DNA from: Dictyobacter arantiisoli
GTDB taxonomy: Bacteria > Chloroflexota > Ktedonobacteria > Ktedonobacterales > Ktedonobacteraceae
NCBI RefSeq assembly: GCF_008326305.1
Contig: NZ_BIXY01000010.1
Location: forward strand, 51,137-115,136
Length of the DNA stretch: 64,000 nucleotides
Reading direction: 5' to 3'
Shown piece after piece: positions 13,087-63,900 of this stretch. Below the pieces are notes generated by a model. That model had not been told where the DNA came from. It saw nothing but the letters and a program-made list of their open reading frames with translations, and ran no database searches. How positions within the stretch are numbered: the stretch's first letter is position 1; each line of letters begins with the position of its first letter. The translations under genes and the position numbers were made by a program.

Positions 13087-14484
13087 ATGGCAGATAAACG
13101 GGGAGACCACACCCTCTACGAACAGGTCATGGCTACCATTAAAAGCGAACGAATCAATTTCGTTAATCTGGAATTCACCGATGTTGTCGGCGTGGCAAAG
13201 TGTGTCACGATTCCAGCGGAACAGTTTGCAGATTGTGTGCGGCACGGCAAATGGTTTGATGGGTCCGCACTTGAGAATATTGCCCGGGTGGCCGAAAGCG
13301 ATATGTACCTGTATCCAGATCTCGCTACCTTTTCCATTCTACCGGGTCACGTACGCCCCCCATCAGGTACACGAAAAAATGACATTCATAATGATGGTGA
13401 TAATGTTATAGCCCGTGTTATTTGCGATGTACGCGAACCAGACGGCGAACGCTTCGAGGGTGATCCACGTGCTGCCTTATTCCATGTTCTGGAACTGGCA
13501 AAGGAGATGGGCTTCAAATACCAGGTCGCTCCTGAACTCGAATTCTTCCTACTGCGTTTTGATGACAAAAAACCCATGCCCCTGCAGGATGATCCAGGCA
13601 GCTATTTTGATCTTTCTACACAAACGACAATCAATATTCGCAGTGAAATGGTCCATGCTCTGCAAAGTATGGGGATGAAGATCGAGGGGAGCCATCACGA
13701 AGTCGCCTCTGGCCAGCATGAGATTGATTTTGATACCGGCGATGCGCTCCGCATGGCGGACAATCTATTGACGGCTAAATATGTTATCAAGGCCATTGCG
13801 GCCCAGCATCAACTTTACGCCACCTTCCTGCCTAAACCCTTTTATCGCATCAATGGATCAGGATTACATATCCATCAACAGCTGCTGCATCGTGACACCG
13901 GCCAGAACGCCTTTATCGATGACCATAGTGAATACGGCCTGTCGGAAATTGGACGCGGTTTTATTGCAGGACAACTGGCACATGCGCGTTCAATGTGTGC
14001 CATCCTTGCCCCACTGGTCAACTCCTACAAACGTCTGGTACGTGGCTATGAAGCTCCAGTCTTCATTAACTGGGGACGCGTCAATCGGCAAGCACTGATC
14101 CGGGTACCTCGTCCAGGGACCGATCCGCAAGCATCCATGCGCATCGAATTGCGCTGTACTGATCCCAGTTGTAATCCTCATCTCGCTCTGGCAGTGATGC
14201 TACGCGCAGGACTGGACGGCATCCAGCGCAAGTTAACGCTGCCGCCAGCCATGGATGAGACAATCTTCCTGCAAGATGATAGCGAACGCCTGCGCCCGCG
14301 CTCCCGTCTCTTACCAGCTACCCTGGGTGAGGCACTGGATAGTATGCGCGAAGATAGTCTGATCCGCGATGTATTGGGTGATACGATCTACGAAGGCTTC
14401 ATGGATGCCAAAAGCATTGAATGGACCGAATATCGCCAGCAAGTCCATCAATGGGAAATTGAGCGTTATCTGGCTCAGTTCTAA
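13087..14484 (+). CDS. Glutamine synthetase family protein (GS-I-like; could be a gamma-glutamyl-polyamine synthetase paralogue)
   Basis: 465 aa. N-terminal beta-grasp INFVNLEFTDVVGVAKCVTIP plus catalytic domain. Strong RBS AAAGGAG. Confidence 0.7.
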   Translation: MADKRGDHTLYEQVMATIKSERINFVNLEFTDVVGVAKCVTIPAEQFADCVRHGKWFDGSALENIARVAESDMYLYPDLATFSILPGHVRPPSGTRKNDIHNDGDNVIARVICDVREPDGERFEGDPRAALFHVLELAKEMGFKYQVAPELEFFLLRFDDKKPMPLQDDPGSYFDLSTQTTINIRSEMVHALQSMGMKIEGSHHEVASGQHEIDFDTGDALRMADNLLTAKYVIKAIAAQHQLYATFLPKPFYRINGSGLHIHQQLLHRDTGQNAFIDDHSEYGLSEIGRGFIAGQLAHARSMCAILAPLVNSYKRLVRGYEAPVFINWGRVNRQALIRVPRPGTDPQASMRIELRCTDPSCNPHLALAVMLRAGLDGIQRKLTLPPAMDETIFLQDDSERLRPRSRLLPATLGEALDSMREDSLIRDVLGDTIYEGFMDAKSIEWTEYRQQVHQWEIERYLAQF

Positions 14485-14509
14485 ACCCAGTTTTAACTGT
14501 GCTGAGAGG

Positions 14510-15649
14510 CTACAGCGGTTGGGCCGCAGGGACGCGCCCAACCGCTGTAGCCCTATCCATAGCCAGTGTATACACTTGCTCATGGGCATCCAGCATACGT
14601 TTGAGTGAAAAATTAGCTACGACATGGGCTCGACAGGCGCTCCGCTCGATAGTTGCCAACCGGGCTACGGCGGCGGCGGCCTGTGCGCAGTCCCCAGCGG
14701 GAATCAAAAATCCCGTCTGCTGATCGCGGATAACCTCGGTCACGGCTCCACGCTGGAAGGCGATCACGGGCGTGCCTGCAGCCATGGCTTCAACGGGCGT
14801 CAGGCCAAAGGGTTCGTCCCAGGCAATCGGAAAAAGTAAGCCTTGCGCCTGCCCCATCAGTTGCCAGAGCGTTGGATGGTCAAGCTGACCAAGATAGTGA
14901 ATGCGCCCCTGCCCGACTTCCAGGCGTGGGACAATGCGTTCGCTATAATAAGACTGATCATAAATGCCGCCAGCCAGCAATAGTTGACGCCCGGCCTGCT
15001 CGGCGATCTCAATCGCCTCCTCGACTCCTTTCTCTGGCGTGATCCGGCCAGCGAATAGGAGCGGAGCATCGTCGGCTACCTGTAGCACAAAGGGAATGGC
15101 ATCCAGATCCAGGCCATTGTAGATGATATGATCGAAGGTGGTATAGGATGCATAATCGCGTGCGCAGGCTTGCGAGACGGTGATCAAGGTGAATGGATGT
15201 TGCTGACGCTGTAGAATCCCTAGGACTGCATTAATCTCTGGCGAGACGGCTGGCAGATGAATGGTATGCAGTACCGGAAGCGTGGTGAGCAGGGCACTGG
15301 CAGTAAAGCAGGGCCAGTCAAAGGCGTGAGCATGCAGGATATCAAATTCACTGGCACGCTGGCGCAGCTGTAAAAAGAGCTCAAAAAAGACATTCGCCTG
15401 GATCATAAATCCTGGATCAGCGGATTGGGCGGTACCGGGCTCGGAGAAGCGTGAGGGAATCACGCTGTCAGGTACTACAACCGGCTCGATCTTAACGCCA
15501 GGAATAGATGAACCTTCGCGTGCAAACAATGTCACCTCATGACCACGTTGAACCATACCCAGAGCCAGATCAGCCACTAACGCCTGTGAACCTCCCACAA
15601 ATGGTTGCGCTATCGGAGTCACCAGTGGAGCAACCAGCGCGATCCTCAT
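14510..15649 (-). CDS. GT-B glycosyltransferase, family 4-like; candidate pteridine glycosyltransferase
   Basis: N-terminus MRIALVAPLVTPIAQPFVGGSQ...RGHEVTLFA, C-terminal EPFGLTPVEAMAAGTPVIA motif. Start overlaps the upstream PTPS stop by ATGA. Confidence 0.8.
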   Translation of the reverse strand: MRIALVAPLVTPIAQPFVGGSQALVADLALGMVQRGHEVTLFAREGSSIPGVKIEPVVVPDSVIPSRFSEPGTAQSADPGFMIQANVFFELFLQLRQRASEFDILHAHAFDWPCFTASALLTTLPVLHTIHLPAVSPEINAVLGILQRQQHPFTLITVSQACARDYASYTTFDHIIYNGLDLDAIPFVLQVADDAPLLFAGRITPEKGVEEAIEIAEQAGRQLLLAGGIYDQSYYSERIVPRLEVGQGRIHYLGQLDHPTLWQLMGQAQGLLFPIAWDEPFGLTPVEAMAAGTPVIAFQRGAVTEVIRDQQTGFLIPAGDCAQAAAAVARLATIERSACRAHVVANFSLKRMLDAHEQVYTLAMDRATAVGRVPAAQPL

Positions 15650-16083
15650 ACCTGACCTGCTTTCGACACGCTCTCACGATCTCCATGGTAGGTTGCAATA
15701 TTATTCTCTGTCTCATGCAACTTTACCTCATATAATAATCCTTCCGGAAAACCGCGCTCCAGGCGCTCCCAGAACTTGATTGCCAGCATCTCCGCAGTCG
15801 GGATCACCCCTTCCAACCAGGGAACATCGTAGTTGAGATGCTTATGATCCACCCAATTAACAACCTGCTCATTGGTAATCCGCTTTAAATCGGTTAAATT
15901 GATGACCATACCCGTATGCTCATTGGGCTCCCCACATACCGTCACCTCCAGGACATAGTTATGACCGTGACCATTGCCATTGGCACATTTATCATAGATG
16001 CGATAATTTTCTTCTTCAGTCAGATGATTGCTCCATAGACGATGTGCCGCACTAAAGGTGACACGCCGGGTCAGATAGACCAT
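15646..16083 (-). CDS. 6-pyruvoyl-tetrahydropterin synthase family (PTPS/QueD)
   Basis: 145 aa from the internal Met (MVYLTRRVTFSAAHRL...CANGNGHGHNY). The ORF-track extension up to 16347 runs into a repeat element and is not credible. Confidence 0.8.
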   Translation of the reverse strand: MVYLTRRVTFSAAHRLWSNHLTEEENYRIYDKCANGNGHGHNYVLEVTVCGEPNEHTGMVINLTDLKRITNEQVVNWVDHKHLNYDVPWLEGVIPTAEMLAIKFWERLERGFPEGLLYEVKLHETENNIATYHGDRESVSKAGQV

Positions 16084-16126
16084 GATCCTATCTCCTCTAT
16101 CATAATCGTAATAGTAAGCGTAGCAA

Positions 16127-16404
16127 CCACCCTTCACGGGCAATACCGCTTCAACAAGAGGAATCTCGACGAATACGGTAGGTGCGTGCCGAGGTCGCAA
16201 CCAAGGTGCGCTTGCCCATTCATCGTACGAGCATCCCGCCCATAGGCCATTCCTACCCCGACACCCATGCCGGAGAACAGTGCAGAGCGTTGGGGTGAGA
16301 GAGTCGTACGCGCAAGGGAGCATTGACCTGCGCTGCGCTCCGTGCAATGCCTACGTTTTGTTCATAATGCTCCGTATTGAAGCGGTATTGCCCGTGAAGG
16401 GTGG
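16127..16404 (+). mobile_element. Full-length MITE-like element (~278 bp) with 28-bp perfect terminal inverted repeats
   Basis: TIR-L ccacccttcacgggcaataccgcttcaa at 16127, TIR-R ttgaagcggtattgcccgtgaagggtgg at 16377. The internal core tgtaggtgcgtgccgaggtcgcaacc...cctacgtttt is shared with copies at 20647 and 57752. Confidence 0.7.
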
Positions 16405-16433
16405 TTACTACGATCTACGATCCTTTCTTTTCG

Positions 16434-17141
16434 CTAGGCGTTAGTGAACAGCTCGATGTTGCTGCCGCTGAACATGCTTCCAGAGTCATCGGCCAGGAAG
16501 CGGATAATTTCGGCTAACTGTTCAGGGGACATGGCTGCATTCAGATGCGGGGCCGCTTGCCGCAACATCTCGGTATCAATAGCACCGGGACTGACTGCCG
16601 TGACACGAATGTTATAAGGTTTGCCTTCGACAGCCAATATTTCAGTCAAGCCTGCTACACCTGATTTTGAGACGTTATAGGCACTCATTCCGGGGAATTT
16701 CTCTACTCCTTTGACGCCTGAAAGCGAGGAAATATTGATGATTACTCCCTGCTTCTGTTCCATCATCAGCCGGAACGCGGCATGGCAGCAGAGAAAGGTA
16801 CCACGCAGATTGATCCCCATCACTTGATCCCAGGTTGCGATATCCATATCGGCAAATGGCTTTACCGCTACAATAGCAGCACAATTCACCAGAATATCCA
16901 CGCGACCATGCGTCTCTTTGACACGCTGAAAAAGCGCCTCGACATCTGCTTCACGTGCAACATCACCAGCCATGGCGAGGACACTTCCAGCCGATGGCGC
17001 AATGTCAGCCACCAGCTCATCTAACTGGGATTGGGTGCGGCTGAAGAGCACAAGTTGTGCTCCAGCTTGCGCGAATAAGCGGGCTGTAGCGCGGCCTACG
17101 CCGCGACCAGCACCAGTAATAATTGCTACTTTATTTTTCAT
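16434..17141 (-). CDS. Short-chain dehydrogenase/reductase (classical SDR); candidate sepiapterin-reductase-like
   Basis: MKNKVAIITGAGRGVGRA Rossmann motif, YNVSK catalytic dyad. The start is set at the internal Met at 17141. Confidence 0.8.
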   Translation of the reverse strand: MKNKVAIITGAGRGVGRATARLFAQAGAQLVLFSRTQSQLDELVADIAPSAGSVLAMAGDVAREADVEALFQRVKETHGRVDILVNCAAIVAVKPFADMDIATWDQVMGINLRGTFLCCHAAFRLMMEQKQGVIINISSLSGVKGVEKFPGMSAYNVSKSGVAGLTEILAVEGKPYNIRVTAVSPGAIDTEMLRQAAPHLNAAMSPEQLAEIIRFLADDSGSMFSGSNIELFTNA

Positions 17142-17437
17142 GCTTGAATTATAACAGGCAACGAGCCGCAACGTGATTGCATACAACCATCTATCTACCC
17201 TGTATCCAGAGGCGGTATGGCTATGGAGAGCAAACGTCAATCTGACCTGCTCACCCGCTTAAAATACGAAATTAAAACCTTCTTGCGCATTTACTTATTC
17301 AGCTTGTTGAATTACCTATAGCTCTGATATAATGCAATGCACAGGCCTTGATAGTAAGAACACTGAATGCTAAGATTATCTTCCACATCACCGATACATA
17401 TTGTATCTAACTGACCAAGCTGGCTCATGGGGGGAGT

Positions 17438-18700
17438 ATGAATACTAACACCGTCTTGTCCGGTAATCTAAGGGATTTTGGCCTCATAGAGATTTTACAG
17501 ATGGTAGAGCTCGGAGGCATGACGGGAGCGATTCATCTCAAGCAGAATACCGGCCGCATGGGCATCCTCTATTTCAATGAAGGCCTCTTAGCCAACGCAA
17601 CTGAACTTGATCCAGGTGCTCTGGCCCTCGGCGACGTATTACAACAACTGGGAATGACAACGTACCAGCATATTGAAGAGGCATATGCCCAACAATTACA
17701 GGACCCATTGGGCAAGCGCATCGGTGAACGTCTGGTAATGATGAATGTGATTACAGAACAGCAGTTGCATGAAGCTCTACGCATCAAGACGTTATGGACG
17801 GCACGCGAAATTTCGCTCTGGAACGATGGTCACTATGAGTTTATCGCCAGTTCTAGTGTCCAAAAATTATTACCCTATGGCGAGGCTTCACTGGATATTG
17901 AAGTGGTGCGCGCCACGATGGAGATGGTCCGTTACAGCGATGAGTGGCAGGAATTAAGCCACATTCTTCCCCATGGCATGCGCACGATGCTACAGCTGGC
18001 ACCGACAATTTCCAGTGCCATGCGCTTCGATATCCGCAGCCTGGAACTCTTTACGCATGTCAACCTCTATCGCCGCGTGCGCCGGATCGCCAGCGCCTTG
18101 CGCCGCCCGGAATTGGATGTTGCACGCGAACTTGGTCAATTAACCAAACAACACTTCCTGTTGCCTCTCTATCAAGAAGCCCCACATCTCAACGGTCGCA
18201 AAGTACGCCTGCCTGGTCCAGCAGAAAAGCTACGCATGGAAAACTTTGAGTTATTGAATCTGATCAGTCGCATGGAACAGGCCTGGGAAACCAAAAACAC
18301 GCCTACCGAACAACTTTCCGCACTGGTGATGTTTATTAACTGGACCATGGATGCACTCTCCGAAACCTGCCGCACCAATGGTATAGATCTCGATGTCAAT
18401 ACATTACAGACACTTATGCGCAATGAAAATCTCTGGCATATGGGTAGTTATGAATTTCGAGTTGACCATAACCATATCGACATTGAGAACTTCGCAGCCT
18501 TATGTTATGAAATTCTCAATGGCGATATTAAAAAAGCCGCAGGCTTCTATGATGAAGCCTCTATGGTGCTCCAACGCTTGCTTAGTTGTATCTTTGAAAT
18601 GATCAATGGGCGTGTGGCGAATCCCCGAGAACGCATCGAAAACCAGGAGGTCTGGGAGGCGATGTTCGAGCAGTTCGCCTTACAACGTGGTGATGATTAG
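17438..18700 (+). CDS. DUF4388 (PATAN-like) domain protein
   Basis: N-terminal LRDFGLIEILQMVELGGMTGAIHL motif typical of DUF4388. The rest is of unknown function. Confidence 0.55.
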   Translation: MNTNTVLSGNLRDFGLIEILQMVELGGMTGAIHLKQNTGRMGILYFNEGLLANATELDPGALALGDVLQQLGMTTYQHIEEAYAQQLQDPLGKRIGERLVMMNVITEQQLHEALRIKTLWTAREISLWNDGHYEFIASSSVQKLLPYGEASLDIEVVRATMEMVRYSDEWQELSHILPHGMRTMLQLAPTISSAMRFDIRSLELFTHVNLYRRVRRIASALRRPELDVARELGQLTKQHFLLPLYQEAPHLNGRKVRLPGPAEKLRMENFELLNLISRMEQAWETKNTPTEQLSALVMFINWTMDALSETCRTNGIDLDVNTLQTLMRNENLWHMGSYEFRVDHNHIDIENFAALCYEILNGDIKKAAGFYDEASMVLQRLLSCIFEMINGRVANPRERIENQEVWEAMFEQFALQRGDD

Positions 18701-20502
18701 TTGTCTCTGGCAACGATATTCCCGGTCAGTGGCACCTCTGTGCTGACGGTTTCTAGCTGCACATCATCAATCCAGACCTGGCCGGAGCCGCTGAGCGCCA
18801 GCCCAAACTGGATATAGCTGCTAATGGCAGATACATCCAGCACTATCTCATAGCGGGCCCAATCTCTGGTACCCACAATTGGACGCGCACTCATATCATC
18901 AACAGACAGATGCCCGTCTGCATTGCCGATATGCATCCATAAACCAGCGTAGCCTGTAACATTGCGCGCTTTCACATTCGCCGATAAGCGAATACGGCGC
19001 TGGCGATAGAGATCAGATGGAAGCATTTGTCCCAGCCAACTGGTCTCAGCAGTAAGGGTTGCAGTGGATTGTAGATAGGCACAGACATGACCGCGATAGG
19101 CAAATGTTGTTTCAATTTCACAGGTGTATCCCTGGGGCGTCTTCCACTGCCAGAAAGCCAGCCCGGCTTCAAAACGTAGATTGCGCGGCCCCTTCAAATT
19201 TTTTGCTGTAAGCTGACGAGGAGCTTCCACAGCAGGCTGGATGGCATTCAACAATCTGGATGGCGTTCCCTCCTGCACATGCATAACCGCATCGAAGACA
19301 TCCGGTAAGCACACTGTTGCCCAGCACTGTTTTTCTAGCTGAGGCGTATAGGCTGCACCTATGAGTCTGTAACAATGGGGATTTTGTATCCATTGATAAG
19401 GAACATCCGGCAATCCTTGTAAATCAATCAGCAGGCGCGGCAGACCCACGGCGCCGAATAAGGCTTCATAACTCTGTTGCGGTGCCAGACCGACAGCAGG
19501 CGTAATGATTTTTCCGGGCTGGCTACGATCCTCAGCATTAAAGGTTCCACTGCCAAGTAACAGACAAAATGAAACCAGATCATTACCATACATTTCGTTG
19601 AGATAGGAACCAAGTGTACGTGGTTGTGCATTAGCACTGGCAGCAGCGGCATGTCCATTATGCGTCCAGATACATATTCTGGCCTCATACTCATACTGTG
19701 CCAGATGCCAGGCAACATTCTCTGCCATGGAGCGACTGCGCAATGAAAAGTCATGCCGAGAATACATTTCTTCCGCCTGCAAGACAATTTGTGCGCATTG
19801 GAGAGCATAGGCAAATGCCTCATGAGATGAGGATTTCTCATAGGTCGCCCGCCGCTCCACCAATAGATCATGAACCCGTTGCAATTGCGACCAGCATGTT
19901 TGCTTAACCTGGATGGTCTCGTTACTATACAGTTCCAGATCATCGGTATATTCGCCGAAAGCTTGATAGAGGTCAGTGATTTCACTCACTGCATCCGCAT
20001 CCACATAACCGATATAATTCAGCACGTTGATCATAGCTAAAGTGCACGATTGCATATCCAGACCAAGCAATTGCAAGGCAGGCTTCTCACCCCGCTGCTT
20101 ATTATACTCCCGCATCCACTCAATCACATCCAACATCTCCTGCGTCTTCCAGGTCCAGGATAACAAACCGTTGAGGAGTTCTTTAGGATCTCCTTCACCC
20201 GTTAAAACATAGTGATTAACGCATTCCACCTCACACAGACCATCCTCAATTGCCAGCAACGTAAACCCTTGTTCCCGCACCAGAAATTCCAGGCAACGAT
20301 GCTTGAGCATAAAAAACTCGTGATTTCCACGAGTCGCTTCTCCAAATGCTACGATATGAGCATCACCTACAATATTCGCCAGTGGTTGCAGATCGCGATA
20401 ATTTCCACCAGGCATACTATTTTTCAGCCGCAGCGCGCTTTCTTTCAACAACTCAATCACATCTTCCAACTGTATAACGTGCTGTCGTTGCATATATCTC
20501 AT
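18697..20502 (-). CDS. Erythromycin-esterase (Ere/ChaN)-family protein with an extra C-terminal ~200-aa beta-rich domain
   Basis: N-terminal ~400 aa resemble the Ere family (GEATRGNHEFF...). The stop overlaps the convergent DUF4388 gene stop. Confidence 0.65.
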   Translation of the reverse strand: MRYMQRQHVIQLEDVIELLKESALRLKNSMPGGNYRDLQPLANIVGDAHIVAFGEATRGNHEFFMLKHRCLEFLVREQGFTLLAIEDGLCEVECVNHYVLTGEGDPKELLNGLLSWTWKTQEMLDVIEWMREYNKQRGEKPALQLLGLDMQSCTLAMINVLNYIGYVDADAVSEITDLYQAFGEYTDDLELYSNETIQVKQTCWSQLQRVHDLLVERRATYEKSSSHEAFAYALQCAQIVLQAEEMYSRHDFSLRSRSMAENVAWHLAQYEYEARICIWTHNGHAAAASANAQPRTLGSYLNEMYGNDLVSFCLLLGSGTFNAEDRSQPGKIITPAVGLAPQQSYEALFGAVGLPRLLIDLQGLPDVPYQWIQNPHCYRLIGAAYTPQLEKQCWATVCLPDVFDAVMHVQEGTPSRLLNAIQPAVEAPRQLTAKNLKGPRNLRFEAGLAFWQWKTPQGYTCEIETTFAYRGHVCAYLQSTATLTAETSWLGQMLPSDLYRQRRIRLSANVKARNVTGYAGLWMHIGNADGHLSVDDMSARPIVGTRDWARYEIVLDVSAISSYIQFGLALSGSGQVWIDDVQLETVSTEVPLTGNIVARDN

Positions 20503-20635: not shown

Positions 20636-20846
20636 TGATGGAGAAATGTAGGTGCGTGCCGAGGTCGCAACCGAGGTGCGCTTTCCCGTGAATCGTACGA
20701 TTCAAGCCCCGAAGCCCTGTATCCATTTCCCTGGGATCGAGAGATGATGGAAGATGTAGGCACGAAGCGCAAGCGCAGGTCCGTGCAATGCCTACGTTTT
20801 TTCTCATACATCCTCTTATTTAAACGGTATTGCCCGTGAAGGGTGG
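20636..20846 (+). repeat. Truncated copy of the MITE-like element: core plus the right TIR only
   Basis: atgatggagaaatgtaggtgcgtgccgaggtcgcaaccgaggtgcgc...cctacgtttttt, then cggtattgcccgtgaagggtgg. No left TIR. Confidence 0.65.
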
Positions 20847-20914
20847 CTACTACGGAGGGACGATGCACGCAACCTCACCGTAAAGGATGAGGTTGCGTGC
20901 ATCGTATGTTGGGG

Positions 20915-22408: not shown

Positions 22409-22505
22409 AAATATCTCCCACTTGCTTTTGTGAAATTTGTAAATTCTAAGAACTATCAAACCATACGTTCACACCTTGTTATTATATCAGAGCTACATCC
22501 CCATC

Positions 22506-22579
22506 GTAGAATCTACCCTTCACGGGCAATACCGCTTCAATAAAGAGAAGCAGTATTGCCCGTGAAGGGTAGATTCTAC
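22506..22579. repeat. Minimal hairpin derivative of the MITE family: the two TIRs abutting with an 18-nt loop
   Basis: gtagaatctacccttcacgggcaatac(cgcttcaataaagagaagcag)tattgcccgtgaagggtagattctac, a perfect ~27-bp stem. Confidence 0.7.
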
Positions 22580-36961: not shown

Positions 36962-39472
36962 TTATTTACGTTGTCCGAGGTCACGGGCAACGTGGGTAAC
37001 TCCTTTGATGCGCTCCAGTTTGCTAAAGAGTCGATGCAATTGATCGAGATCGTCAATTTCTAATGTCGCCATGATCACGACGGTCTGATGATTGGTGCTG
37101 ACATTAGAATTGATTGACATCAGATTAGCCCCTGCATCAGAGACGACGGTCGCAACATCCCGTATCAAGCCAGTACGATCATTGGCAGTAATGACGACTG
37201 GAGCATTATAGCGCAATGGTCCCATGCCAGCCCAATTGACGTGGATCAGGCGTTCACGATCCTTTTCCCCTAAGCGAGCAACGTTACGACAATCAGAACG
37301 ATGAACGATAACGCCTTTACCTCGACTAATAAAGCCAACAATATTGTCATCTGGCAATGGATAGCAGCAGTTGGCGAGGCGCGTCAAGAGCCCGCTGACA
37401 CCCGCCACCTCTAATTGAGCAACAGCCTGTTTGCTCGGCGTAGCGGCTGGCAGAGAGATGTTTCCTTCAGCCTCCCTCGCATCCTTGTCTTTATCTTTCT
37501 CCCGATGGTCACGCTGCCAGTATTCCTGCAATTTGACAATAACGGCACGTGGTCGGAGATCATCCGCGCCAATAGCAGCCAGAAGATCATCGAATGAGTC
37601 AGCATTCAGACTGCTACAAACCCAATTTTCAGCATCCTCACTAATCGAGGAAGCATCGCGCGTCCCCAGTGCTTTTAACTCGCGCTCCAGACGTTCCTGT
37701 CCAATCTGGATATTGATTGGTCGCTCATTGATTTTAAGATAGCGCCGAATCTTATTACGAGCCGCAGTAGTACGTGCGGAATTTAACCAGTCGCGTGTTG
37801 GATGAGCACTACGGCTGGTCACAATATCGACAATCTCACCGTTTTTTAGCTCATAGTTCAGTGGTACCATACGCGATACCAGACGATCACCGCTTCCATC
37901 CCCATCCGAAGAAATGATACGCGCACCCGAACAATGATCCCCAATCTTCGAGTGGATGCGATACGCAAAGTCCAATGGTGTCGAACCAACCGGTAGATCT
38001 TTGACCTCACCCTTGGGCGTCAAGACAAAGATCTGTTCTTGAAAATAATCATCCTTGACCGCTTCCACAAACTCGGTATCACTGGCATTGGCGATGCGTA
38101 GATCTTGCTGCCATTCCGTCAGTTGACGCAGCCAGGTTAAGAGTTCTTTCGCCGAAGCCGAAGCCGTATCCCCCACATCTTTATAGTGCCAATGCATGGC
38201 GACCCCATATTCGGCTGTCTCATGCATTTCATGGGTGCGAATCTGAATCTCTACCAACTGATCGTCCAGGCAGAAAACAGTGGTATGCAACGCACTATAT
38301 CCATTGGGTTTAGGATTGGCGATAAAATCTTTAATACGTCCTTCCTTGGGACGCCAGAGGCTGTGTACATGCCCCAGGGCCACATAACAGTCTGTAGTGG
38401 TGTCAACCAGGATACGGAATGCCAGCAGGTCATGGATCTGGCTGATATCAAAAACAGCTTTTAAGCGTTCAAAATCAGTATCATCCTCGCCAATGCGCAC
38501 AATCTTTTTATAAAAGCTGTATGGATGCTTGACGCGTCCAGAGATTTCCGCTGTGACACCCAGCGAAGCCATTTCGGACCGCAACCTATCACAGACACGT
38601 TCAACATACGAACGCCACTGCTTTGTTTCCACATCCAGCGTATTGCGTACCCAAATGTAGCGATCAGGTTCGAGAATTTGAAAGGCCAGATCCTGTAGCT
38701 CACTCTCCACCAGAGACATACCCAGACGGCCAGCCAGAGGCGCATAAATCTCACGTGACTCCTCGGCCATCGTCAACATCTCTTGTGGATCGCCATGATA
38801 GTCTTGCTGACACATCAAACGCATAGCATGCAAGCGATATGCGAGCTTCAATAAGACGACGCGAGGATCATCGGCCATCGCCACAAACATCTTGCGGACA
38901 GTTTCGGCCTGCTGGCGACGCATAGCCTCACGTACACGTGGCTTCTTACTTTCTAAAGCAGACAGCGTCCCATCATCATCACGCTCGTTATAGGCTTTCT
39001 TTGACGACGAGAGTTGTGTATTCTGAATTGCCAGTATAGCGCCAGTAGCGGCATTCTGTTTTTTGCGTTCCAGGATATTGAGGCGTAGCATGCTTTCTGC
39101 GATACGTGCTGTAGCTGCTCCCAACACATACTCAACCTGTTCAATCAATAAAAGTTCAGCGTCAACAGCCTCATATACCAGACCAGCAGCGATTCCAATG
39201 GAATCAACATGCATCATCTGTGCCATAATAGTCGTCACAGCCAGTGCATGATCCAGAGGAGCAATTGGACGAGTGGGATTGCCAGGAACATCCTGGCACG
39301 TTTCTCGGGTAAGCTGAAAAGCTTTTACCACATAGTCCACCTCAGCTGGCGTCATATAGTGACGAACCAGCGAGAGTAATTGCATCATCGCAACCGGATA
39401 AGGAGGCTCAGCAAATTGTTGTTCTACAGACCTATCTATCATAATTCTTTTACGGCCATATGACATATCCAA
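36962..39472 (-). CDS. Long RelA/SpoT homologue, RelA-like: synthetase motifs intact, hydrolase HD motifs degenerate
   Basis: Synthetase motifs GRVKHPYSFYKKI, RPKEGRIKD, HTTV, EIQIRT, YGVAMHWHYKD are conserved. The hydrolase region has PLDHALAV...GLVYEAVD in place of HP...LLHDVVED. TGS, Cys-Cys zinc-finger and ACT C-terminal domains are present. Confidence 0.8.
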   Translation of the reverse strand: MDMSYGRKRIMIDRSVEQQFAEPPYPVAMMQLLSLVRHYMTPAEVDYVVKAFQLTRETCQDVPGNPTRPIAPLDHALAVTTIMAQMMHVDSIGIAAGLVYEAVDAELLLIEQVEYVLGAATARIAESMLRLNILERKKQNAATGAILAIQNTQLSSSKKAYNERDDDGTLSALESKKPRVREAMRRQQAETVRKMFVAMADDPRVVLLKLAYRLHAMRLMCQQDYHGDPQEMLTMAEESREIYAPLAGRLGMSLVESELQDLAFQILEPDRYIWVRNTLDVETKQWRSYVERVCDRLRSEMASLGVTAEISGRVKHPYSFYKKIVRIGEDDTDFERLKAVFDISQIHDLLAFRILVDTTTDCYVALGHVHSLWRPKEGRIKDFIANPKPNGYSALHTTVFCLDDQLVEIQIRTHEMHETAEYGVAMHWHYKDVGDTASASAKELLTWLRQLTEWQQDLRIANASDTEFVEAVKDDYFQEQIFVLTPKGEVKDLPVGSTPLDFAYRIHSKIGDHCSGARIISSDGDGSGDRLVSRMVPLNYELKNGEIVDIVTSRSAHPTRDWLNSARTTAARNKIRRYLKINERPINIQIGQERLERELKALGTRDASSISEDAENWVCSSLNADSFDDLLAAIGADDLRPRAVIVKLQEYWQRDHREKDKDKDAREAEGNISLPAATPSKQAVAQLEVAGVSGLLTRLANCCYPLPDDNIVGFISRGKGVIVHRSDCRNVARLGEKDRERLIHVNWAGMGPLRYNAPVVITANDRTGLIRDVATVVSDAGANLMSINSNVSTNHQTVVIMATLEIDDLDQLHRLFSKLERIKGVTHVARDLGQRK

Positions 39473-39770: not shown

Positions 39771-42230
39771 TTATTTTCCTGGTGCGCGCTCAACACTGAC
39801 AACCGTTTTGACCTGGCGCAAACGCCGTAAAATACGCTCCATCTGATCCACAAATGCTCCGGCGTTCGCCGCAATCTCAAGTGTCGCGGTAATCACTGCT
39901 TTCTGCGAAGCAGGATTTGTGGTTGAGGTCACAGATACCATATTGATACCCGCATCGGTTACCACTGCGGCAACATCGCGCAAAAGGCCCGAACGATCAT
40001 GAGCCACCAGCGTAATGGCAACCAGATAGTTCTCGGGATGAATCTGTTGCCAGCTAAATTCGATCAAGTGATTGGCTGTATCTGGATTGCGATGCAATTG
40101 CTCACAATCACAACGATGAATCACAACACCTTGATCACGGGTCATCTGTCCTACAATCGCATCCCCAGGAACGGGACAACAACAGCGGCCCAGTTGCAAG
40201 GGGCTGGCCTTTTCTCCATCTTTATGTGGATAAAAACTATTCTCGTTCTCGTCACTCTCTTCACAGGGTGGAAGTTGCTCCTGTAAAGGAGTAAGGACCT
40301 GTTCGACCTGCACATCTTCGCGGCCCAGAGCCACATAGATATCTTCAAGCATACTGTATTTCTTGGAGAGCAACAATGAACGCGGCTCTTCAATATACAG
40401 TTGATATAACAGGCTTTCAACCAATTCATTTAAGCCGGCCATACCCGCTGTCTTCAAGGCGAAGTCTAACCGTTCACGTCCCAGTTGCAAGTTGATTTCG
40501 CGCTCATACGTTTTAAGATAGCGCCGAATCTTATTGCGGGCCGCCGCCGTACGCGCAAAGGACAGCCAATCCCTGGTCGGGTGAACGGTCCGATTGACCA
40601 TAATCTCGACAATTTCGCCGCCCTTAAGCTCATAATCCAACGGCACCAGACGTGTCACCAGATGTCCACTATCATCAGTATTGGTAATGATGCGTGCACC
40701 AGCGCAATGATCGCCAAGATCAGTGTGAATGCGATAGGCCATATCCAGCGGAGTTGAACCACGCGGCAAATCCTTGACCTCTCCCTGTGGAGTAAACACA
40801 AAGATCTGCTCCTGGAAGATATCACCCTTGACCGCCTCAACGAACTCATCCGCACCTTGTGGCAAGGCACGTTGCCACTCGCGCAATTGCTCAATCCACG
40901 TCATCATCTCGCGATAGGAGAGACGCCAGCTTCCTGGTTTTGCCTCATCATGCTCATTTTGTTCTTTATCGGCGTGCCCCATACGTTCTTTAAGGAACCA
41001 GTAACTGGCGATGCCATAATCCGCAGTACGTTGCATATCATAGGTGCGAATTTGAATTTCAGCCAGACGATTCTCCAGACAAAAGACCGTCGTATGGAGG
41101 GATTGATAGCCATTCAGCTTGGGGGTCGCAATAAAATCCTTAATGCGTCCATCCTTTGGACGCCAGAGGGCATGGATGTGCCCCAGGGCCAGATAACACT
41201 CATAATCCGAGTCCACCAGAATGCGGAAAGAGATCAGATCGTGGATCTGACTCAACTCATTGCCGTTCAGCTGGGCGGGCACATCTTCCAACTTGCGGTT
41301 AATACTGGCGAGATGTTTCTGCCATGCCAGCACATCGGCGTGAATGCCCGCGCGTCTCATCTCATCGCGCAGCACTCGACAGACCTCGGTGATAAATGGC
41401 ATGCGTCGTTTCACCTCTTCAGCCACCTGTTTCGCCAGTTTGACATATTTTTCAGGCTCAAGATAGCCAAAGGACAGATCTTCAAGGTCAGCCTGCACCA
41501 GGGACATCCCCAGGCGACGGGCCAGAGGGGCATAAATCTCACTGGTCTCGCGCGAAGTATTCTGTTGCTGCGCGGTAGACATCGCGCCCAGCGTGCGCAT
41601 ATTATGCAGACGATCAGCCAACTTTACCACCACCACCCGTGGATCTTCAGCCATTGCCAGCAGCATCTTACGCACCGTCTCTGTTCGAATACGGCGTTTA
41701 TCAACCAGCGAAGGAGGAACACCTGCGGTCAGAGTGGCTTGATCCTCAACTGCAGTGCTGGCGCCTTCCTGCCCTGATTTCGCGGGCTTTGTACCGGCGA
41801 GCGTATCAAACTTCGTCACCCCATCCACAATATGGGCTACAGAGGAACCAAATTGCTCACGCAGATCTTCAAGTGAATACTCAGTATCTTCAACTACATC
41901 ATGGAGGAGTGCAGAGACAATACCATCCGCATCGATACGCATTCCAGCAAGCAGTAGGGCTACCTCCAACGGATGTTGAATATAAGGTTCGCCAGAGCGT
42001 CGCAAGGCCCCCTTATGTGCACGATGCGCTAAATCGTAAGCACGCTGAATCTTCTCCATGTCTTCTGGAGTAAGGTATTGCCGTGTCTCAGTTAACAAGT
42101 CCTGGATCGTCATACGCGACTGCGTGACTTTCGCTCCCATAGTCATTGTGGTGCGTACCATAGGAACAATCGCCTGCGTATCACTGGATTTATCGGACTC
42201 ATCAGCAATTTTGTCGAAATTGGTAGCCAT
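39771..42230 (-). CDS. Long RelA/SpoT homologue, SpoT-like: hydrolase HD domain intact, several synthetase motifs diverged
   Basis: Hydrolase HRAHKGALRRSGEPYIQHPLEVA...LLHDVVEDT is intact. The synthetase GRxKHxYSIYxKM motif is replaced by AWQKHLASINRKL and AHWxYKE by ASYWFLKE, while RPKDGRIKD, HTTV and EIQIRT are retained. Confidence 0.8.
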   Translation of the reverse strand: MATNFDKIADESDKSSDTQAIVPMVRTTMTMGAKVTQSRMTIQDLLTETRQYLTPEDMEKIQRAYDLAHRAHKGALRRSGEPYIQHPLEVALLLAGMRIDADGIVSALLHDVVEDTEYSLEDLREQFGSSVAHIVDGVTKFDTLAGTKPAKSGQEGASTAVEDQATLTAGVPPSLVDKRRIRTETVRKMLLAMAEDPRVVVVKLADRLHNMRTLGAMSTAQQQNTSRETSEIYAPLARRLGMSLVQADLEDLSFGYLEPEKYVKLAKQVAEEVKRRMPFITEVCRVLRDEMRRAGIHADVLAWQKHLASINRKLEDVPAQLNGNELSQIHDLISFRILVDSDYECYLALGHIHALWRPKDGRIKDFIATPKLNGYQSLHTTVFCLENRLAEIQIRTYDMQRTADYGIASYWFLKERMGHADKEQNEHDEAKPGSWRLSYREMMTWIEQLREWQRALPQGADEFVEAVKGDIFQEQIFVFTPQGEVKDLPRGSTPLDMAYRIHTDLGDHCAGARIITNTDDSGHLVTRLVPLDYELKGGEIVEIMVNRTVHPTRDWLSFARTAAARNKIRRYLKTYEREINLQLGRERLDFALKTAGMAGLNELVESLLYQLYIEEPRSLLLSKKYSMLEDIYVALGREDVQVEQVLTPLQEQLPPCEESDENENSFYPHKDGEKASPLQLGRCCCPVPGDAIVGQMTRDQGVVIHRCDCEQLHRNPDTANHLIEFSWQQIHPENYLVAITLVAHDRSGLLRDVAAVVTDAGINMVSVTSTTNPASQKAVITATLEIAANAGAFVDQMERILRRLRQVKTVVSVERAPGK

Positions 42231-43765: not shown

Positions 43766-44962
43766 GTGTTTGGGAATTACATGTCATCATTTAACTTTAC
43801 AATTGACGCTGAATCTTCCGAGACGTGGGCGCGGGCCGGAACGATTCAGACTCCCCACGGGACCATCGAGACGCCGATCTTTATGCCAGTTGGAACACAG
43901 GCAACAGTCAAAAGCGTTTCACCTGAAGAACTACACGGAGTTGGCGCACAAATCATTCTTGCCAATACCTATCATTTGATGCTACGACCGGGATCGGCTT
44001 TGATCGATTCCTTTGGTGGTCTGCACTCATTTATGAACTGGCAGGGCCCAATTCTGACGGATAGCGGCGGCTTCCAGGTCTGGAGCCTGGCCCATAATCG
44101 CAAATTAAATGAAGATGGTGTGGTCTTTAAGTCACACCTGGATGGCTCGTCGCACGCGCTCACCCCCGAACGCGTCATGCAGATTGAGGCTGAACTGGGG
44201 GCTGACATTGTCCTACCGCTGGACATTTGCGCGCCCTATCCCTCAAATCCTACCGAGGCCCGTAAGGCGATGGAATGGACCCACCGCTGGGAAGAACGTG
44301 CGCTGGTAGAAAAAGAGAAACTCCGTCCGGAGCAGACACTCTTTGGTATTGTTCAGGGGGCCTTTGAAGCTGATTTACGCGCCCAGAGCGCCCAGGTGAT
44401 CGGGAACATGCCTTTTCAAGGACTCTCGATCGGCGGCCTATCGGTCGGCGAGCCAAAAGAGCAGATGTGGGAGATGCTCAAGCATGTAACGCCAGAATTG
44501 CCACGCGACAAACCACGCCATCTGCTGGGAGTTGGATCACCCGAAGATCTGGTCATTGGCGTCGGGTTAGGCATGGATATGTTTGATTGTGTCCTCCCGA
44601 CACGCGTTGCCCGGCATGGTGGACTCTTTACCCGCGATGGACGGGTAAGCATCAAGGGTGCGCGCTTCCGCACTGCCCACGGTCCCATTGAGGAGGGCTG
44701 CGATTGCTACACCTGCCAGCATTATAGCGCCGCCTATGTCTGCCATCTGGCACGCGCAGAAGAACAGCTCTACTATCGTCTGGGTAGTATTCATAATATA
44801 CGTTTTATGCTCCGCCTCGCTAAAGAACTACGCGAGTCGATTATAAATGGTACCTATCCAACTTTTCGCGAGACATTTCTGGCACGCTATGTGCCAGCAT
44901 CTGAGAAAGTGCGCGAAGCACAACGCGAAAAATGGATCAAAGCGCGCGATCAACGCGCATAG
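43766..44962 (+). CDS. tgt: Queuine tRNA-ribosyltransferase
   Basis: TPHGTIETPIFMPVGTQATVK, DSGGFQ, and the zinc site CDCYTCQHYSAAY. 398 aa. Confidence 0.85.
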   Translation: MFGNYMSSFNFTIDAESSETWARAGTIQTPHGTIETPIFMPVGTQATVKSVSPEELHGVGAQIILANTYHLMLRPGSALIDSFGGLHSFMNWQGPILTDSGGFQVWSLAHNRKLNEDGVVFKSHLDGSSHALTPERVMQIEAELGADIVLPLDICAPYPSNPTEARKAMEWTHRWEERALVEKEKLRPEQTLFGIVQGAFEADLRAQSAQVIGNMPFQGLSIGGLSVGEPKEQMWEMLKHVTPELPRDKPRHLLGVGSPEDLVIGVGLGMDMFDCVLPTRVARHGGLFTRDGRVSIKGARFRTAHGPIEEGCDCYTCQHYSAAYVCHLARAEEQLYYRLGSIHNIRFMLRLAKELRESIINGTYPTFRETFLARYVPASEKVREAQREKWIKARDQRA

Positions 44963-57739: not shown

Positions 57740-57930
57740 ATCACGATGGAGAAGTGTAGGTGCGTGCCGAGGCCGCAGCCGAGGTGCGCTTTCCTCGTCT
57801 CGTACCATAATCTTGCCCCAACGCTCGGTGATTTACCCAAACGCGAATATTGGGATATGGATGGGTCTACGGTTGAGTACGATGTACAGGAAGCGGGACT
57901 CACATCCGTTCTTGCCGCACCTACGTTATT
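57740..57930 (+). repeat. Core-only copy of the MITE-family element (no TIRs), closed by a terminal stem gtaggtgcg/cgcacctac plus a T-rich tail
   Basis: atcacgatggagaagtgtaggtgcgtgccgaggccgcagccgaggtgcgctttcc...gccgcacctacgttattt. Confidence 0.6.
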
Positions 57931-63807: not shown

Positions 63808-63900
63808 ATCCTTGCGGTCAATACCGCTTCAATACGAGGAATGAGGACGAAATGCACTCGTCGCAGCCACCCTTCACGGGCAATACCGCTTAAATAGCGA
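63808..63900 (+). repeat. Two tandem partial copies of the MITE-family left terminal repeat, at the window edge
   Basis: gtcaataccgcttcaatacgaggaatgagg ... ccacccttcacgggcaataccgcttaaatagcgag. Confidence 0.6.

Follow-up and report, generated by a model that had tools for sequence, protein, structure and literature searches.

We identified, in a 64,000-nucleotide (nt) stretch of the Dictyobacter arantiisoli genome (contig NZ_BIXY01000010.1, positions 51,137 to 115,136; hereafter, the window), three co-oriented genes on the minus strand that probably form one operon for the late steps in the synthesis of a biopterin-type pterin glycoside. These genes encode a short-chain dehydrogenase/reductase (SDR; 16434-17141), a 6-pyruvoyl-tetrahydropterin synthase (PTPS) family protein (15646-16083) and a glycosyltransferase (GT) of family GT4 (14510-15649). 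A pterin-glycoside cluster had been proposed at this locus in an earlier, sequence-only reading of the window, and the proposal is supported by the PTPS-II signature of the synthase, the subfamily of the GT and the conserved linkage of the three genes in related genomes. We regard the biopterin-glycoside pathway as a solid prediction from comparative genomics.

According to the proposed mechanism, GTP cyclohydrolase I (GCH-I), presumably encoded elsewhere in the genome, would supply 7,8-dihydroneopterin triphosphate, which the PTPS-II would turn into 6-pyruvoyl-tetrahydropterin. The SDR, probably NADPH-dependent, would act as a carbonyl reductase on 6-pyruvoyl-tetrahydropterin, reducing its side-chain carbonyls to yield tetrahydrobiopterin (BH4) or a stereoisomer, and the GT-B enzyme would move a sugar from a nucleotide sugar onto a side-chain hydroxyl. 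All of these catalytic steps are predicted, as are the SDR substrate, the acceptor and sugar used by the GT, and the stereochemistry. The resulting glycoside could potentially serve as a UV-A screen, an antioxidant, a cofactor store or a signal.

The three genes and their linkage in related genomes

The arrangement described in the sequence-only reading was recovered in full from the open reading frame (ORF) list of the window, and Pfam searches confirmed the family of each product: adh_short for the SDR (2e-58), PF01242 for the PTPS (2e-33), and Glycos_transf_1 (4e-24) together with Glyco_transf_4 (2e-16) for the GT. Counted from ATG, the SDR comprises 235 amino acids (aa), as it does in the NCBI call (P0391), and the PTPS 145 aa, the mechanical ORF of the latter extending upstream to a TTG within the repeat element described below; the GT is 379 aa long. 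For the GT and for the SDR alike, a database protein of 100% identity carries the name of D. arantiisoli. The TGA stop codon of the PTPS gene shares 4 nt with the ATG of the GT gene at 15646-15649 on the minus strand, where the DNA reads '...ggtATGAggatc' and the junction sequence '...caggtATGAggatc' is a four-base stop/start overlap. This ATGA overlap, which had been noted before, indicates translational coupling of the two genes, and the same -4 overlap is found in 19 of the 35 PTPS/GT junctions of related loci, most of the others having a gap of 3 nt or less.

The PF01242 domain of the PTPS (E = 2.3e-33) spans residues 4-134. The best matches among solved structures are human (7e-42) and rat (1e-40) PTPS, whereas QueD proteins match only at about 1e-10 (2e-10), that is, the animal enzymes are better by about 30 orders of magnitude. 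Over 132 residues aligned without gaps, the protein is 51% identical to rat PTPS, and seven residues of the rat active site (His23, Cys42, His48, His50, Asp88, His89 and Glu133) are all identical in it; of these, we take His23, His48 and His50 to be the Zn ligands, and Cys42, Asp88, His89 and Glu133 to be catalytic. The motif C33-A-N-G-N-G-H39-G-H41 has the form CxxxxxHGH, which is also present in all 46 of the 46 PTPS genes found beside GT homologues. By the COG0720 motif rules of de Crecy-Lagard and co-workers, CxxxxxHGH denotes PTPS-II (biopterin), CxxxHGH denotes QueD and ExxHGH denotes PTPS-III (PMC5041015). The spacing between Cys and HGH is five residues, not the three of the QueD motif, and the score against the NCBIfam QueD equivalog model TIGR03367 is 69.3 bits, below the cut-off of 89.25. 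Judged by this signature, the protein is a PTPS-II of the biopterin type and not a QueD, which is the assignment that the sequence-only reading had favoured and had suggested checking by such a comparison.

When the GT was searched against all PDB sequences, five distinct strong matches were obtained that fall into two groups. One is TeGSS of Thermosynechococcus (7fg9, 8x3q), the closest solved relative (2e-55, 38% identity, rising to 45% in the C-terminal donor domain), and the other comprises the BH4 glucosyltransferases 9v0l (1.3e-44) and BGluT (5ze7 and 5zer, ~7e-40; 6.6e-40 for 5ze7), to which the GT is about 31% identical over its full length. The next PDB match, at 3.5e-16, falls 24 orders of magnitude short of the weakest of these, and PimA, BshA and MshA are weaker still (1e-13 or worse). 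CtPGT of Chlorobium tepidum (Q8KE51; sequence source, PMC5683033) is 30% identical (E = 9e-40), and the homology to each of 9v0l, 5ze7 and CtPGT covers about residues 1-360 of the GT. By these similarities, the GT belongs to the small BGluT/PgtA-CtPGT-TeGSS subfamily of GT4, in which all pteridine glycosyltransferases characterised to date are found (about 1,000 representatives at E < 1e-30), and is a proposed pteridine glycosyltransferase itself. Grouping with PimA or MshA had been named in the sequence-only reading as a result that would speak against this; the GT instead groups with the subfamily (1e-40 to 1e-55), at a distance from PimA, MshA and BshA. Apart from TeGSS and alr1000, the members of the subfamily that have been characterised act on pterins (PMC3546692, PMC4133829, PMC5683033). 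Many orthologues of the GT bear the JGI pipeline name 'UDP-glucose:tetrahydrobiopterin glucosyltransferase', a name that homology does not settle, given that the nearest solved relative acts on sucrose.

In a neighbour-joining tree of 83 sequences (100 bootstraps) that included TeGSS, CtPGT, BGluT and 9v0l as references, the GT and 71 genomic relatives form their own clade, apart from TeGSS plus CtPGT and from BGluT plus 9v0l, in 97 of 100 bootstraps. The GT thus lies outside the clades of the experimentally characterised pteridine glycosyltransferases, in a third, uncharacterised one. The likeness to cyanobacterial BGluT/PgtA that had been suggested for it holds at the level of the GT4 subfamily, the nearest characterised homologue being TeGSS. 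The donor-site motifs GR-I-x-PEKG and W-x-EPFG are retained.

The gene context is the decisive evidence. We scanned one genome per species with a 12-sequence GT alignment (a 26-sequence alignment was too diverse for a genome scan) and recovered 80 loci with GTs of 33-73% identity, to which two further loci were added by exact look-up. Within 3 kb of the GT, loci at the Ktedonobacteraceae level (GT identity of at least 59%; n = 38) contain an SDR in 36 cases, a PTPS in 36 and GCH-I in none; the corresponding numbers are 16, 4 and 1 for intermediate loci (44-54%; n = 26), and 6, 5 and 6 for distant loci of the query clade (37-40%; n = 10). By contrast, none of the three genes is found within this distance in any of the seven outgroup loci, whose GTs (33-36%) cluster with TeGSS and CtPGT. 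The order SDR-PTPS-GT is kept in 36 of the 38 Ktedonobacteraceae-level loci, and in 29 of 29 where the flank extends for at least 3 kb on each side. Beyond this family, the partners are rearranged. Intermediate Chloroflexota (GT identity of 44-49%) show the orders SDR-GT, GT-SDR-PTPS and SDR-GT-SDR-PTPS, with a divergent arrangement in Chlorohelix, and in several of these rearranged loci, stop and start codons overlap.

GCH-I joins the cluster in distant relatives. Two metagenome-assembled genomes of Actinomycetota (L072, 4047-7814, with the record title 'uncultured Actinomycetes bacterium', and L074) carry GCH-I, PTPS-II, a methyltransferase, GT and SDR in this order on one strand, the methyltransferase being an S-adenosylmethionine-dependent protein of the Methyltransf_11 family; this cassette suggests a methylated pterin glycoside. 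In two further loci (L067 and L068), GCH-I, PTPS and SDR surround the GT, again with a methyltransferase in L068, and in a member of Limnocylindria (L071, 7121-8598), GCH-I follows 14 nt after the GT and is itself followed by a RibD_C-like reductase, assigned by eye from the sequence. Overall, the GT remains beside SDR, PTPS or GCH-I in at least five gene orders and in several phyla. Because SDR, PTPS, GT and GCH-I stay partnered through repeated rearrangement, the classic signature of a single pathway, they are predicted to share one, and the four enzymes match the succession from GTP through dihydroneopterin triphosphate, 6-pyruvoyl-tetrahydropterin and tetrahydrobiopterin to a glycoside. 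The synteny survey proposed in the sequence-only reading therefore lent stronger support than expected. No PTPS, SDR or GCH-I was found within 6 kb of the cyanobacterial BGluT-type genes of Synechococcus elongatus and Leptolyngbya ohadii.

The linkage of the SDR is at least as tight as that between PTPS and GT: an orthologue (41-78% identical) adjoins the GT in 36 of 38 close, 16 of 26 intermediate and 6 of 10 distant loci. Its sequence shows the TGxxxGxG cofactor motif and the catalytic Ser, Tyr and Lys of a classical SDR (TGAGRGVG at 9-16, NCAA at 86, SLSG at 139 with Ser141, YNVSK at 155-159 and PGAIDT at 185). The GT-linked SDRs constitute one conserved group, whose members are 43-74% identical to the query, the mean column identity being 61%. 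From gene linkage alone, we propose that it is a sepiapterin-reductase-like enzyme acting between PTPS and GT. Of the earlier suggestion to this effect, the association with PTPS and GT stands across loci, but no specific similarity to known sepiapterin reductases was detected. The known sepiapterin reductases are not known to form one clade, so a poor match to them does not exclude this function. A match to 2et6 (6e-52) might have indicated a special SDR subfamily; however, profile alignment showed that this score is the sum over two SDR domains in 2et6, and this assignment was rejected.

Contrary evidence and alternative explanations

Several observations weigh against a biopterin glycoside as the product of this operon. 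The closest characterised homologue of the GT, TeGSS, glucosylates sucrose, not a pterin, and in domain-wise BLAST, the N-terminal (acceptor) domain of the GT is only 26-37% identical to each of the four references, so that the acceptor is not assignable by similarity; furthermore, the GT tree was built by neighbour-joining alone. As a classical SDR, the protein is FabG-like and generic, and the database names of its orthologues are all generic as well. The sepiapterin reductase of Chlorobium (2bd0) ranks about 53rd among its matches (7.8e-28), behind ~50 FabG-like proteins, and is outside the top 60 when a profile of the GT-linked SDRs is used as the query. No GCH-I was found in the 64-kb window among the 36 larger ORFs scanned, nor were a hydroxylase or other pterin genes, the only related items being tgt and a formyltransferase, and a search of the available literature library found no paper tying Ktedonobacteria to pterins. 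Finally, 22 of the 26 intermediate loci lack a PTPS within 3 kb of the GT: 12 of these keep the SDR, one has a GCH-I fragment and nine have none of the three genes.

Among the intermediate loci, five, and probably six, carry a gene of the PGA_cap family (CapA-like) between SDR and GT. The five (L056, 4075-7164, and L058, L062, L063 and L065) belong to one Ktedonobacterales lineage, in whose loci no PTPS was found within 6 kb, and downstream, L058, L062 and L063 (likewise L059) have a gene for a response regulator. The PGA_cap protein might provide a phosphoesterase step of a different pterin route. Given the 22 intermediate loci without a nearby PTPS, the nine without any of the three genes and the five with PGA_cap, the pterin that is made may differ between lineages.

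One alternative, which we consider unlikely, is that the pathway is pterin-based but its product is not a simple BH4 glycoside. Here, the SDR would reduce one carbonyl only or set the threo configuration, or the GT would act on another 6-substituted pterin, such as one of the neopterin or 6-hydroxymethylpterin type, and genes located elsewhere might add further tailoring. Known pterin glycosides indeed vary in both pterin and sugar, including biopterin, L-threo-biopterin, 6-hydroxymethylpterin (cyanopterin) and neopterin types (PMC3546692, PMC5683033), and the GT forms a clade of its own. The relatives also carry candidate tailoring genes, namely, the methyltransferases of L072, L074 and L068 and the RibD_C-like reductase after GCH-I in L071, apart from the PGA_cap gene between SDR and GT in L056, L058, L062, L063 and L065, with no PTPS near. 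Against this, the only genes linked in the window are SDR, PTPS-II and GT, which are the enzyme set leading from the GCH-I product through 6-pyruvoyl-tetrahydropterin and BH4 to a glycoside, and PTPS-II chemistry gives the three-carbon side chain of biopterin.

It is less plausible still, and in our estimate improbable, that the GT acts on a sugar or oligosaccharide, in the manner of a glucosylsucrose synthase, or on some other non-pterin acceptor, with PTPS and SDR as mere neighbours that make BH4 for an unrelated use. TeGSS (tll1591), the best characterised match of the GT (2e-55, 38% identity), uses sucrose or glucosylsucrose as the acceptor, and its gene adjoins that for sucrose-phosphate synthase (PMC9909042); it shows that acceptor specificity is not fixed within the subfamily (PMC9909042). 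Nevertheless, the GT gene overlaps the PTPS gene by 4 nt, an overlap that is itself conserved, and has kept SDR, PTPS or GCH-I as a neighbour in several phyla, across five or more gene orders. No sucrose-phosphate synthase was found near it, the neighbours being PTPS, SDR, a glutamine-synthetase-like gene and a DUF4388 gene.

The TeGSS side chains that touch sucrose are Trp10 and Tyr18, which are acceptor-contact and catalytic residues, besides Arg179 (PMC9909042). Trp10 and Tyr18 are both replaced by Val in the D. arantiisoli GT; within its clade, the residue aligned with Tyr18 varies and that aligned with Trp10 is small and hydrophobic (Val in most sequences, Ile or Ala in a few), whereas in the TeGSS/CtPGT clade, Tyr18 lies within a conserved YGGTE motif. 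The query clade has an invariant loop, H-A-H-A-F/Y-D-x-P, which may contact the pterin and whose A-F/Y-D-W core is found in the BGluT type as well (N-F-A-Y-D-W), but not in TeGSS. The separate clade (97 of 100 bootstraps), the lack of Trp10 and Tyr18, and the loop core in common with BGluT argue against a TeGSS-like function.

Finally, the reading of the PTPS-family gene as queD, encoding 6-carboxy-tetrahydropterin synthase for queuosine, in a cluster unrelated to biopterin, could draw on the tgt gene in the window, from which the organism can be taken to have a queuosine pathway, on the occurrence of queA at a distance of a few kb from the GT at certain distant loci (L044) and on the sub-threshold match to the NCBIfam QueD model, but is very unlikely in view of CxxxxxHGH in place of CxxxHGH, the score of 69.3 under the cut-off of 89.25, the weaker match to solved QueD proteins (1e-10 compared with 1e-41 for animal PTPS), the distance of 28 kb to tgt on the opposite strand, and the lack of queC, queE and queF both near the PTPS gene and among the 36 larger window ORFs scanned against Pfam. 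The tgt gene (queuine tRNA-ribosyltransferase) occupies 43766-44962 on the plus strand and is unlinked to the PTPS gene.

The repeat element, flanking regions and neighbouring genes

The SDR-PTPS spacer (16084-16433, 350 nt) contains a non-coding, MITE-like inverted-repeat element of ~294 bp at 16119-16412. Its arms (16119-16177 and 16354-16412) are 59 nt long with 80% complementarity, reaching 97% in a 36-nt core, and if transcribed, the element would form a very stable hairpin (-159 kcal/mol, z = -6.95). Further occurrences of its 35-nt terminal sequence are at 22506 and 63860, compared with 0 expected by chance, and related intergenic copies or remnants lie at 20648-20854 (a larger copy), 22503-22579, 57756-57818 and 63815-63896. 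No direct repeat that would represent a target-site duplication was evident in the element flanks read. Of the sequence-only claim that a miniature inverted-repeat transposable element (MITE) separates SDR and PTPS, a short multicopy inverted-repeat element is thus confirmed, but no target-site duplication was recognised; the label is reasonable, not proven.

At the same spacer of other loci, no blastn match to the element was found. The spacers of other Dictyobacter species are enlarged as well (250-640 nt), without detectable similarity to the element, and that of Ktedonobacter robiniae, which lacks the element, is 21 nt. Because the SDR gene ends only 21 nt before the PTPS gene in K. robiniae, the long Dictyobacter spacer is secondary. 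A weak promoter-like site on the minus strand within the element (16126-16099) is too near the PTPS start to convince and was set aside. In the sequence-only reading, the element was suggested as something that may affect expression; neither a terminator nor a convincing promoter was predicted for it, and it matched no known RNA family.

Of the non-coding DNA preceding the three genes, only the divergent intergenic region 5' of the SDR gene (17142-17437) is of any length; we presume that it holds the operon promoter, although a consensus promoter scan of its minus strand gave nothing above chance. More broadly, a consensus scan of 14300-17500 returned promoter and terminator counts not above the shuffled expectation, and a search for known RNAs, including riboswitches, in 14000-18000 yielded one miRNA match at chance level and nothing else.

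A plus-strand gene at 17438-18700, transcribed divergently from the SDR gene, has a product of 420 aa. A DUF4388/PatA_N domain (1.7e-18) lies at the N-terminus of this protein, which also matches the MshE-type c-di-GMP-binding motif with 33.4 bits, short of the cut-off of 38. In 26 related loci of the Ktedonobacteraceae, the operon likewise has an orthologue of this gene upstream of it. Pterins have been linked to phototaxis in Synechocystis (PMC3546692), and a regulatory link between this protein and the operon is therefore conceivable; however, plain synteny explains the conservation equally well. From the divergent pairing of the operon with this conserved gene, and the weak match to the c-di-GMP motif, it is likewise conceivable that the glycoside might not be a sunscreen but a signal or a photosensory cofactor.

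Convergent to the GT gene, a glutamine-synthetase-like gene occupies 13087-14484 on the plus strand, with a score of 427.5, just below the GlnA equivalog cut-off of 429.15; in 21 related loci, the GT is likewise followed by an orthologue of this gene (63-85% identical) on the opposite strand. An erythromycin-esterase domain (6.5e-67) is present in the 601-aa product of the minus-strand gene at 18697-20502; this product has, in addition, a C-terminal extension of ~190 aa without a Pfam match. Farther away, tandem full-length genes of the RelA/SpoT family are present on the minus strand (36962-39472 and 39771-42230), each with HD, RelA_SpoT, TGS and ACT domains.

Relation to known pterin glycoside systems

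The operon is not a new kind of system, because the logic of the pathway is known and automated annotation already applies the BGluT name to orthologues of the GT. New elements are the host phyla, the distinct GT clade, the operon with a dedicated SDR, and the distant cassettes that run from GCH-I to GT and include a methyltransferase. A broader interpretation, which we put forward only tentatively, is that a third, uncharacterised clade of the pteridine glycosyltransferase subfamily, bound in operons to PTPS-II and a dedicated sepiapterin-reductase-like SDR, and in some lineages to GCH-I and a methyltransferase, makes previously undetected and possibly structurally new pterin glycosides in non-phototrophic soil Chloroflexota (Ktedonobacteria and Limnocylindria), Actinomycetota and others.

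Reviews of pterin glycosides record them from cyanobacteria, Chlorobium and Sulfolobus only, and leave their function unresolved (PMC3546692, PMC5683033). If the biopterin-glycoside pathway is borne out, this chemistry would extend to new phyla, by way of a compact SDR-PTPS-GT operon in culturable, non-photosynthetic Ktedonobacteria. Furthermore, the GT-linked SDRs, now annotated just as 'SDR' or 'FabG', would be a candidate family of bacterial sepiapterin reductases, and the three genes would amount to a cassette for BH4 glycosides that could be expressed in Escherichia coli, which itself makes the GCH-I product.

Compared with the known components, the PTPS resembles the animal PTPS-II enzymes (rat, 1B66; human, 3I2B) in its 51% identity, CxxxxxHGH motif, Zn ligands and catalytic Cys, Asp, His and Glu, and differs from them in its bacterial host and in the location of its gene in an operon with a GT. 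The SDR is similar to the sepiapterin reductases (the mammalian enzyme and that of Chlorobium tepidum, 2BD0) as a classical SDR with Ser-Tyr-Lys and in its proposed pathway position between PTPS and GT; however, it has no specific sequence relationship to them, and the GT-linked SDRs are a group of their own.

For the GT, close known systems are BGluT of Synechococcus elongatus PCC 7942 (5ZE7, 5ZES and 5ZFK) and the related 9V0L, together with PgtA (slr1166) and the pteridine glycosyltransferases of Arthrospira CY-007 and CY-049, which have been described in the literature. The D. arantiisoli GT has in common with BGluT and 9V0L the GT-B/GT4 fold, the narrow subfamily, the GRIxPEKG motif, the W-x-E-x-FG region and the A-F/Y-D-W element of the N-terminal domain, and is predicted to catalyse the same type of reaction as BGluT, transfer of a sugar to the side chain of a reduced pterin; it differs in its separate clade (97/100), its coupling to PTPS and its non-phototrophic chloroflexotal host. 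TeGSS (tll1591, 7FG9), considered here with alr1000, is the best solved match (2e-55, 38% identity and 45% in the donor domain), but has a sucrose acceptor, a sucrose-phosphate synthase neighbour, Trp10 and Tyr18 where the D. arantiisoli protein has Val, and a place in the tree beside CtPGT. CtPGT, which makes tepidopterin (L-threo-biopterin N-acetylglucosaminide), exemplifies a pterin side-chain GT outside cyanobacteria (PMC5683033); it belongs to the same subfamily as the D. arantiisoli GT (30% identity, E = 9e-40), but groups with TeGSS and, unlike that GT, bears the YGGTE and HSH-LEY motifs.

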